A stretch of 64,000 bases of DNA from an uncultured Acidobacteriota bacterium (GTDB lineage: Bacteria > Acidobacteriota > Thermoanaerobaculia > UBA5066), in contig CAVZPE010000013.1 of the NCBI GenBank assembly GCA_963776915.1, positions 82,951 through 146,950 of the forward strand, given 5' to 3'. Below, in pieces: positions 2,741 to 2,957 of the stretch (positions within the stretch are counted from its first letter, which is position 1; each line of letters opens with the position of its first letter). Under the pieces are notes generated by a model. The model saw only the letters and a list, made by a program, of their open reading frames with translations. It was not told the DNA's origin and searched no databases. The translations under genes were made by a program, and so were the position numbers.

Positions 2741-2774
2741 AAAAAAAACCGGCCCTCTCCTGCGAGAGGGCCGG
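2741..2774 (-). terminator. intrinsic terminator in the metY leader (candidate attenuator terminator)
   Basis: On the minus strand: CCGGCCCTCTC-GCAG-GAGAGGGCCGG (11-bp GC-rich stem, 4-nt loop) followed by T8. It ends about 35 nt upstream of the metY ATG, so it lies inside the 5' leader and not after a gene. Confidence 0.75.
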
Positions 2775-2817
2775 TCGGGTTTCCGAGTGTTGCTCGGGCC
2801 GCTTGGTTCGAGGACGC

Positions 2818-2886
2818 CTACGTCGTCGAGCCTCCGTCCACCTCTCGCGAGATGACGCACATGCACATGCACATGGAAATGCACAT
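2818..2886 (-). CDS. candidate leader peptide [22 protein letters not shown] (Met/Cys-codon rich)
   Basis: ATG at 2886-2884 and TAG at 2820-2818. 8 of the first 10 codons are ATG or TGC, including a perfect (ATGTGC)3 tandem (2857-2874). It lies between a promoter-like element and the leader terminator. No clear Shine-Dalgarno precedes it. Confidence 0.45.
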
Positions 2887-2928
2887 ACAGGCGGCGGCGG
2901 AGGCGGAGCGGCGCGTCATGAAGGCGTC

Positions 2929-2957
2929 ACGGTAGGGAAGCGACGGAGGCTTGTCAA
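2929..2957 (-). promoter_or_regulatory. sigma70-like promoter for the metY-metX leader
   Basis: On the minus strand, TTGACA (2957-2952), a 17-nt spacer, then TACCGT (2934-2929). It is positioned about 40 nt upstream of the leader ORF. Confidence 0.5.

Follow-up and report, generated by a model that had tools for sequence, protein, structure and literature searches.

Organisation of the metY-metX locus

The metY-metX operon described here is carried on a 64,000-nucleotide (nt) stretch of DNA from an uncultured Acidobacteriota bacterium (contig CAVZPE010000013.1, positions 82,951 to 146,950), which was analysed as a whole and is referred to as the window. Upstream of metY lies a leader with a short open reading frame (ORF) containing a run of methionine (Met) and cysteine (Cys) codons and an intrinsic terminator, for which an earlier note had proposed ribosome-mediated attenuation in response to sulfur amino acids. 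All leader and metY features are on the minus strand, coordinates are positions of the window, and every position given in that note was confirmed there. The features are listed below.

2929..2957, minus strand: promoter, with a -35 box TTGACA (2957-2952), a 17-nt spacer and a -10 box TACCGT (2934-2929), read from the sequence and from the geometry in relatives
2818..2919, minus strand: leader ORF of 33 codons plus stop, from ATG 2919 to TAG 2820-2818 (ORF list)
2899..2911, minus strand: upstream C-rich segment, codons 3-7 (CCGCUCCGCCUC), putative 5' strand of an anti-antiterminator by its predicted pairing with region 2
2857..2889, minus strand: putative regulatory Met/Cys codon run, codons 11-21, with 4 Met and 5 Cys codons and (ATGTGC)3 at 2874-2857
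2839..2854, minus strand: small hairpin P1, CAUCUC-GCGA-GAGGUG, directly 3' of the last Cys codon (sequence reading)
2833..2848, minus strand: region 2, candidate antiterminator 5' strand GCGAGAGGUGGACGG, inside leader ORF codons 24-29, by complementarity to the terminator 5' arm
2808..2832, minus strand: stop-codon hairpin with TAG 2820-2818 in its loop (RNAalifold consensus, two compensatory pairs between subclades)
2783..2797, minus strand: small conserved hairpin CCGAG-CAACA-CUCGG just 5' of the terminator (5/5 pairs invariant in 6 sequences), which may be a pause or spacer element
2741..2774, minus strand: intrinsic terminator CCGGCCCUCUC-GCAG-GAGAGGGCCGG followed by U8 (terminator scan; hairpin energy -24.8 kcal/mol)
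2711..2717, minus strand: metY Shine-Dalgarno sequence AAGGAGG, 3' of the terminator (sequence reading)
1392..2705, minus strand: metY, O-acetylhomoserine/O-acetylserine sulfhydrylase family (homocysteine synthase), Pfam Cys_Met_Meta_PP E=7.6e-145
310..1398, minus strand: metX-like homoserine O-acyltransferase, GTG start overlapping the metY stop, Pfam Abhydrolase_1

The order of these elements, from promoter through the 33-codon ORF, the Met/Cys run and the terminator to the metY Shine-Dalgarno sequence, is as expected for an attenuator. The boxes and spacing of the promoter are as previously described, and the -35 box is a perfect match, although the -10 box agrees with TATAAT at only 3 of 6 positions. 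The promoter is assigned because of this perfect -35 box and its conservation, and not from an E. coli-type scan.

The leader ORF had been read as 22 codons from ATG 2886 to TAG 2820-2818. This ORF is present, but it is the in-frame inner portion of a longer one, as the frame is open upstream to ATG 2919 and gives 33 codons. Counted from ATG 2886, eight of the first ten codons are ATG or TGC, as had been noted, and the hexamer repeat is perfect. The run is the only site in the 64-kb window (71% GC) at which an open frame has at least 4 Met/Cys in 6 codons, with all six frames considered. ATG 2919 lies 9 nt 3' of the -10 box, a spacing shared with relatives. Transcription usually starts about 7 nt after a -10 box, and the leader is therefore probably leaderless or nearly so. 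Translation most likely begins at ATG 2919 on such a transcript, whose predicted start agrees with the regulatory short ORFs on leaderless mRNAs in mycobacteria, Streptomyces and Deinococcus.

The terminator consists of a 5' arm CCGGCCCTCTC (2774-2764), the loop GCAG, a 3' arm (2759-2749) and U8 (2748-2741); the 11-bp GC stem and U tract reported earlier are both there, and a terminator scan called the hairpin at 2774-2741 with 13 pairs. It begins 43 nt 3' of the leader stop and ends 36 nt 5' of the metY ATG at 2705, within a nucleotide of the distance first estimated. The heptamers ATGACGC (2919-2913) and GCGTCAT (2858-2852), described as flanking the Met/Cys codons, were both found. The fold of the 226-nt leader has a z-score of -5.0 against dinucleotide-preserving shuffles.

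MetY scored 659.7 bits against NCBIfam TIGR01326 (curated cut-off 495.1), which places it in the bifunctional O-acetylhomoserine/O-acetylserine sulfhydrylase subfamily, and so the supply of both Met and Cys could depend on it. Sensing of both amino acids would be physiologically reasonable given this subfamily. The top NCBIfam matches of the metX-like protein are MetX models (E=6e-79), below their curated cut-offs.

Conservation of the leader upstream of metY

Known RNA families were searched for with Rfam 15. There was no match at E<=1 over positions 1-8000 and none at gathering thresholds across the whole window, and when the leader alone (2690-2970) was scanned at E<=10, only sub-threshold hairpin noise was obtained, with no S-adenosylmethionine (SAM), S-adenosylhomocysteine (SAH), T-box or leader family. 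A known riboswitch was rejected as an explanation on these three scans.

Loci were gathered from species-representative genomes and metagenomes solely by MetY protein similarity, and their upstream regions were inspected afterwards. At MetY identities of at least 64% there were 46 loci, 30 of which have a Met/Cys short ORF with a strict terminator, six a SAM-II riboswitch only and ten neither. Below 64% identity the same three classes number 1, 0 and 100 among 101 loci, which belong to other phyla, including Firmicutes and Bacteroidota. Most of the ten closer loci scored as neither have kept the short ORF, with a weaker T-tract, and at least four of the 30 positive loci also have a SAM-II riboswitch upstream. 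The close relatives with both ORF and terminator are found in Thermoanaerobaculia, Gemmatimonadota, Longimicrobia and Chloroflexota. The Met/Cys ORF, in frame, and the terminator are therefore kept in metY leaders of three or more phyla, as the earlier note's proposal called for.

The nearest relatives (MetY 88-93% identical) are uncultured Thermoanaerobaculia and other Acidobacteriota, with leader peptides that include MTVRSASACMCMCIPCAPREADGGSTT, MNVRSASPAVCMCMCACIPCASREADGGSTT and MTSRLAPSIPVTPQAALPICMCMCISFALLREADGGMEAFAT. Those of Longimicrobia and Gemmatimonadota include MAIHAATMMCMCMCQCVLPPGETDGR... and MLSILNHMCMCCPCAAL..., the latter from the cultured species Gemmatimonas phototrophica, which carries member L004. 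A strong terminator follows the leader stop by 22-58 nt in all leaders of these groups and of Chloroflexota. The N-terminus MT(R/V)RSAS is conserved in the Thermoanaerobaculia loci L256, L263 and L272, and the geometry TTGACA-17-TACC(G/T)T-9 nt-ATG is conserved in the same three and in L232 and L081. The Chloroflexota loci have TTGACG, a spacer of about 17 nt and CAxxAT, with ATG or GTG 6-9 nt further on.

Loose scanning with the pattern ATGTGYATG...GAGRYGGACGG identified 17 true members among 120 loci. The genome-wide pattern GGACGG-N40-70-CCGGCCCTCTC gave only chance matches among the matches listed. In one metagenome locus (L117) a metY homologue is preceded, at a distance of about 50-200 nt, by a long (ATGACG)n repeat that encodes (MT)n; the repeat could be a Met-codon leader in extreme form or simply a microsatellite.

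These data bear on the simplest alternative, in which a chance ORF or an ATGTGC microsatellite sits beside a terminator that is constitutive and leaky and does no more than shield metY from the upstream gene for an RRM-type protein. (ATGTGC)3 is indeed a short tandem repeat, and open frames of 30 codons are common in DNA of 71% GC. However, the RRM gene has its own terminator at 3029-3006, so the leader terminator cannot belong to it, and a conserved promoter stands between that terminator and the leader ORF. The contrast of 30 of the 46 related loci with 1 of the 101 distant ones, across phyla, effectively refutes this explanation, which we regard as extremely unlikely.

Associated genes and SAM-II tandems

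The same type of leader, with a Met/Cys run, the GAGRYGGACGG motif and a terminator, was also found before a homoserine dehydrogenase gene (L180), an amino-acid-kinase gene of the aspartokinase type (L248) and, in Gemmatimonadaceae, the gene of a TonB-dependent receptor with CarboxypepD_reg and Plug domains (L261), which may import a sulfur or Met-related compound. In its distribution over these genes the leader type resembles a Met-regulon operator.

In Gemmatimonadota, SAM-II riboswitches (RF00521) stand either in place of the Met/Cys leader or ahead of it in series, each element with its own terminator. In three loci SAM-II and its terminator are followed by a Met/Cys short ORF and a second terminator before metY (SAM-II at L002 2701-2772, L005 80-154 and L008 2389-2463), and the same series was recognised by motif in L010 and L086. 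Such an arrangement implies that the two elements read different signals, and the second makes sense if it reads, for example, tRNA charging.

Selection on codons and on RNA

In-frame Met/Cys runs were present in 54 distinct related leader ORFs. Across the family the leaders have a mean of 3.1 Met and 2.8 Cys codons in about 30 codons, and the length of the run varies from a single M-C-M (about 3 codons) to more than 10 codons. Met codons are in frame in differing contexts (ATGTGC and ATGACC repeats, ATGATG, ATGCGC), and synonymous changes between TGT and TGC and between CGC and CGT are present. The segment from the start codon to the run is free in sequence and length, yet always open, and starts with ATG or GTG. 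This is evidence, from sequence comparison, that the Met and Cys codons themselves, and with them translation, are under selection and not only the nucleotides.

After the run the pattern differs. The motif GAGRYGGACGG is conserved as nucleotides, while its frame varies by lineage and gives E-x-D-G, GRGGR or ERRTG, which indicates that the RNA and not the peptide is conserved there and speaks against a specific arrest peptide. Gene finders hardly ever call these ORFs, and a profile built from 15 leader peptides found only nine called proteins, all of them annotated as hypothetical and without a Pfam family.

Two further explanations can be considered against these observations. The first is an element made of RNA only, either a riboswitch or a leader bound by a protein or tRNA, with a ligand such as SAM, Met or homocysteine and with an incidental ORF. 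Such an element would suit a highly structured leader with conserved hairpins and the GAGRYGGACGG motif, and Met genes are usually under riboswitch control. We nevertheless consider it very improbable, as no Rfam family matches, the leaders have no conserved pseudoknot or multi-stem junction whose unpaired bases are invariant, the segment before the run is variable yet always open and in frame from an ATG or GTG near the promoter, the number of Met/Cys codons varies widely, and SAM-II, with which the element can stand in tandem, is already a sensor of SAM.

The second is that the nascent Met/Cys-rich peptide is itself the sensor, by ribosome arrest on a small molecule, or that it is the product, serving as a small peptide with thiol- or metal-binding capacity. 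Conservation of the M-C-M core would suit this, and arrest systems mediated by peptides, such as TnaC, exist, but outside the run there is no peptide conservation, the downstream RNA motif is translated in lineage-specific frames, both the length of the peptide and its number of Met and Cys vary, and the few gene-finder calls (nine, as above) belong to no Pfam family. Little credence is given to this explanation.

Terminator, candidate antiterminator and modelling of the proposed switch

Structure statistics were obtained from a 26-sequence alignment (family A), and the consensus of the window's clade from RNAalifold with six members. The terminator is strongly conserved in family A, with 98.2% of cells paired and compensatory changes at 5 pairs, and none of 500 shuffles was as good. 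A hairpin equivalent to P1 adjoins the Met/Cys run in all family-A leaders in differing registers; column-based pair counting for it was abandoned because the register differs between lineages.

In the window, region 2 (GCGAGAGGUGGACGG) is complementary to the terminator 5' arm over 8 bp, then 3 bp and a further 3 bp. The pairing of CGAGAGG (2847-2841) with CCTCTCG (2769-2763) pointed out in the earlier note is correct and extends by one position, the perfect match being GCGAGAGG (2848-2841) with CCTCTCGC (2769-2762). In family A, 91% of the cells of the antiterminator are paired, compared with 37-65% when the partner is slid. The consensus of the window's clade also has a long-range helix of 11 mostly invariant pairs, in which codons 3-7 (CCGCUCCGCCUC) pair with GAGGUGGACGG and the Met/Cys run is in the loop. 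The codons 3-7 helix is likewise part of the single-sequence minimum-free-energy fold of the window, and is predicted to be the structure that competes with the antiterminator in this clade.

Ribosome stalling was modelled codon by codon by removing the RNA under and upstream of the ribosome. In this model the terminator 5' arm is captured upstream whenever the stall lies no further along than the last Met/Cys codon, and capture falls off at once beyond it. The probability that the 5' arm is engaged upstream was calculated from the partition function; the sequences are related, so that Wilcoxon p-values are not independent. For the family, the median is 0.81 with a ribosome at the last Met/Cys codon and 0.28 with one at the stop, compared with 0.55 when the RNA is naked; the window gives 0.81, 0.41 and 0.30 in the same order. 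The modelling is consistent with a switch set by the position of the ribosome.

The Chloroflexota sister family

The Chloroflexota metY loci (L013-L027, L060 and L089-L100) form a sister family with a very conserved and tighter leader. Its layout is a leaderless-looking start, 7-9 codons, the sequence MCMR(W/R)RPRR(A/T)EDGV, two hairpins and a terminator; MTTTLSWPMCMRWRPRRAEDGV is one of the peptides. These leaders keep a single M-C-M, with synonymous TGT/TGC change. Their predicted antiterminator is a 9-bp GC helix between GCGGCCCCG in the ORF and CGGGGCCGC at the terminator 5' arm (98% paired), and in L016 one antiterminator position has changed along with both its alternative partners. Both observations, read from sequence, support the general design. 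In these leaders the antiterminator strand is directly adjacent to M-C-M, and of two segments after the stop, GGUCAC is complementary to GUGACC in the first codons and GCGCA to AUGCGC.

Proposed mechanism

On the in silico evidence, the leader is probably a ribosome-mediated (leader-peptide) transcription attenuator of the metY-metX operon, as the earlier note had suggested; the Rfam search and the comparison of orthologous leaders were both favourable to that suggestion. It appears best explained as an attenuator that reads the charging of Met-tRNA and probably also that of Cys-tRNA.

Transcription would start at or a few nt before ATG 2919, and a ribosome would translate the 33-codon leader behind the RNA polymerase. 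When Met-tRNA and Cys-tRNA are well charged, the ribosome would pass the Met/Cys codons and region 2 (GCGAGAGGUGGACGG) and reach the stop codon. Region 2 would then lie under the ribosome or be taken back by its C-rich partners, codons 3-7 and the P1 5' arm, and with region 2 occupied the terminator (2774-2749 plus U8) would form and end transcription before metY. When either tRNA is scarce, the ribosome would stall in codons 11-21, on or between the C-rich partners, leaving region 2 free. Region 2 could then pair with the 5' arm of the terminator (CCUCUCGC...CCG...CCG) while the 3' arm has yet to be transcribed, allowing read-through into metY-metX. The sequences themselves show the ORF with its biased codons and the terminator, that both are conserved, and that they accompany genes of the Met pathway; from this we infer leaderless initiation, the exact antiterminator pairs, the response to tRNA charging and the sensing of Cys as well as Met.

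Several results weigh against this proposal. The E. coli-consensus promoter scan made no call at TTGACA-17-TACCGT, where the -10 box is weak and the consensus is that of E. coli. No Shine-Dalgarno sequence precedes ATG 2919 or ATG 2886; the caveat raised earlier about the leader ATG is thus correct, but it falls if the transcript is leaderless or nearly so and ATG 2919 is where translation begins, which would explain the missing sequence. The pairing of the antiterminator alternative is conserved in the family, but the helix has no compensatory change in family A, and in the window the duplex is no better than composition-matched shuffles (-15.9 vs -15.8 kcal/mol for mononucleotide shuffles of the G-rich segment). 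Across the family, the mean z of the duplex energies against shuffles is -0.6. A permutation of own against mismatched terminators is only weakly positive (320/10000, p about 0.03), complementarity in L256, L263 and L272 is weaker than in the window, and several GC-rich alternative pairings are possible, so that the exact switch is not fixed. The antiterminator is therefore regarded as plausible, with conserved pairing, and not as proven. The 54 leader ORFs hold 188 ATG triplets, 169 of them in frame, but this count is partly circular since the motif chose the frame. Furthermore, Met starvation would also limit the charging of initiator tRNA, which would lower leader translation and favour termination, and the role of the Cys codons could lie in RNA structure and not in sensing. 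The proposal is weakest at the switch itself, for which the support is modelling together with conserved complementarity, and covariation was not seen.

The last of these possibilities amounts to the same mechanism with Met alone sensed, in which the Cys codons would provide RNA structure by self-pairing of AUGUGC or by pairing with a downstream GUGCAU. (AUGUGC)n is self-complementary through G-U pairs and folds on itself in the window, and in Longimicrobia and Gemmatimonadota it pairs with a downstream CGUGCAU element. The Met codons are also the more constant (MQM in L019 and L100, MMDMMM in L052, MTMTMT in L008, IRMSMCSM in P0008), and the associated genes (hom, the lysC-like kinase, metX) belong to the Met and not the Cys pathway. 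Against this, Cys codons occur in nearly every member at almost the mean number of Met codons (2.8 vs 3.1 per leader), they are also found outside the AUGUGC repeats (CC, CxC, and IPC in L256), Chloroflexota retain M-C-M with synonymous TGT/TGC change, and MetY is in the bifunctional subfamily. Sensing of Met alone is a serious sub-hypothesis, though we think it unlikely.

More tentatively, and as a proposal that we would hold at somewhat less than even, the leaders may form a class of two-amino-acid attenuators in which a stall at Met or at Cys each relieves termination, translation starts at a leaderless or Shine-Dalgarno-less AUG, and a Met regulon (metY-metX, hom, lysC-like kinase and TonB-dependent receptor) is controlled in Acidobacteriota, Gemmatimonadota and Chloroflexota, with SAM-II in series in Gemmatimonadota. 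If so, a single Gemmatimonadota operon would read the SAM pool, Met-tRNA charging and Cys-tRNA charging.

Comparison with known systems

Leader-peptide attenuation is a textbook mechanism, from which methionine is, to our knowledge, conspicuously missing. In well-studied bacteria, Met genes are under SAM riboswitches, T-boxes or MetJ/MetR. Met as the sensed codon also poses the problem of how elongation can be starved without starving initiation.

As judged from its sequence, the leader appears to meet the defining features of the classical attenuators (trp, his, leu, thr, ilv and pheA of Proteobacteria; trp and ilvB of Actinobacteria). These are a short ORF in the 5' leader that is rich in codons for the product of the pathway, an intrinsic terminator between it and the first structural gene, and, by prediction, a segment inside the ORF that would pair either upstream or with the terminator 5' arm according to the position of the ribosome, a logic that is modelled here. 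It differs from them in that the putative regulatory codons are for both Met and Cys, mixed and often alternating, in that the leader ORF of the window has no Shine-Dalgarno sequence and a probable start at the 5' end of the transcript, and in its hosts, which are Acidobacteriota, Gemmatimonadota and Chloroflexota. In the window's clade, moreover, the partner of region 2 lies 5' of the regulatory codons, which occupy the loop.

The mycobacterial polycysteine leaderless short ORFs are located upstream of sulfur amino-acid genes, and their Cys codons have been shown experimentally to sense the charging of tRNA-Cys (Canestrari et al., bioRxiv 10.1101/834739). A leaderless short ORF before sulfur amino-acid genes is shared with the window, where it is predicted. 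In mycobacteria, the Cys codons follow one another at the 3' end of the ORF and pair with the Shine-Dalgarno sequence further downstream, and regulation is translational with no terminator, whereas in the window Cys codons alternate with Met codons in the middle of the ORF, Met codons dominate, the terminator is canonical and the metY Shine-Dalgarno sequence is outside the switch.

The closest precedent found is the one-paragraph description of 'metL' of S. lividans TK24 (PMC8079986), in which a leaderless peptide ...ARCMCRRMCAF upstream of metNIQ is predicted, on the basis of RNA-seq annotation in a single genome, to act as a Met attenuator. What metL shares with the window peptide is Met/Cys alternation only, its cluster being C-M-C-R-R-M-C, and when compared by peptide only it resembles the Chloroflexota M-C-M-R-R-R and the MTCMRCCRM of Propioniciclava (L034) more than the window. 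It differs in preceding genes for a Met importer and not metY, and no terminator was found for it; the paragraph gives no comparative or functional analysis. A genome-wide search with the pattern TGCATGTGCCGNCGNATGTGC, guessed for the Streptomyces metL DNA, returned chance matches only. Two actinobacterial loci have short ORFs upstream of metY with no obvious intrinsic terminator, namely L034 (Propioniciclava, MHVEPHALSAVAAVRAMTCMRCCRMPA), the peptide of which resembles that of metL, and L052 (Anaerosomatales, ...VLVPMMDMMMTRPGS...), the peptide of which is Met-only.

SAM-II (SAM_alpha, RF00521) occupies the same position before metY in related Gemmatimonadota and likewise ends in a terminator, but it and the other SAM riboswitches bind SAM directly and have no ORF, and the window matches no SAM class. 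Deinococcus deserti also has leaderless leader peptides (PMC4007540), one of them with 2 Cys and encoded ahead of cysS, and the main text of that paper holds no Met/Cys-metY case. A 2005 study predicted Cys leader peptides without terminators in Actinobacteria and found no RNA regulation of Met genes there.

Full-text literature searches, which did not cover all journals, yielded no account of metY under a Met/Cys attenuator and none of elements of this kind in Acidobacteriota, Gemmatimonadota or Chloroflexota. The earlier view that no Met/Cys version of leader-peptide attenuation had been described therefore stands for metY, but not in general, given the predicted metL and the mycobacterial polycysteine ORFs. 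What is probably new here is the Met/Cys specificity, the phyla, the probable leaderless translation and the use in tandem with SAM-II.

If the proposal is correct, genes that make homocysteine would be switched on only when Met or Cys runs short, by a device present in at least three little-studied phyla. This would fill the methionine gap and extend classical attenuation to Acidobacteriota, Gemmatimonadota and Chloroflexota, and probably to leaderless mRNAs. It would also provide a natural sensor of tRNA charging in series with a metabolite riboswitch, and a Met-regulon signature for annotators in phyla with almost no known regulation.

Neighbouring genes and other features of the window

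The gene upstream of the leader is as follows.

3068-3374, minus strand: gene for an RRM-type RNA-binding protein, upstream neighbour (Pfam RRM_1 E=1e-23)

The frame that would encode the customary Gly/Arg/Tyr-rich tail ends at TAG 3070-3068, just before the terminator of the gene, and is one base off the frame of the RRM domain. The ORF in the domain frame continues past both the terminator and the metY promoter, as far as 2916. The GC-rich repeat of this gene may contain a 1-nt indel.

The region 6135-7948 on the plus strand has a gene for an extracytoplasmic function (ECF)-type sigma factor (Sigma70_r2/r4) followed by an ORF without a Pfam match, which may encode its anti-sigma factor. Further along, a 148-nt direct repeat, 99% identical, is present at 8349-8496 and 15039-15186, with 6690 nt between the starts. 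Each copy contains a tRNA-Thr(CGT) gene, and the ORFs between them include one with a radical-SAM-like CNLRCEYC motif. The arrangement suggests an inserted element, or a segmental duplication, with the duplicated tRNA at its borders.

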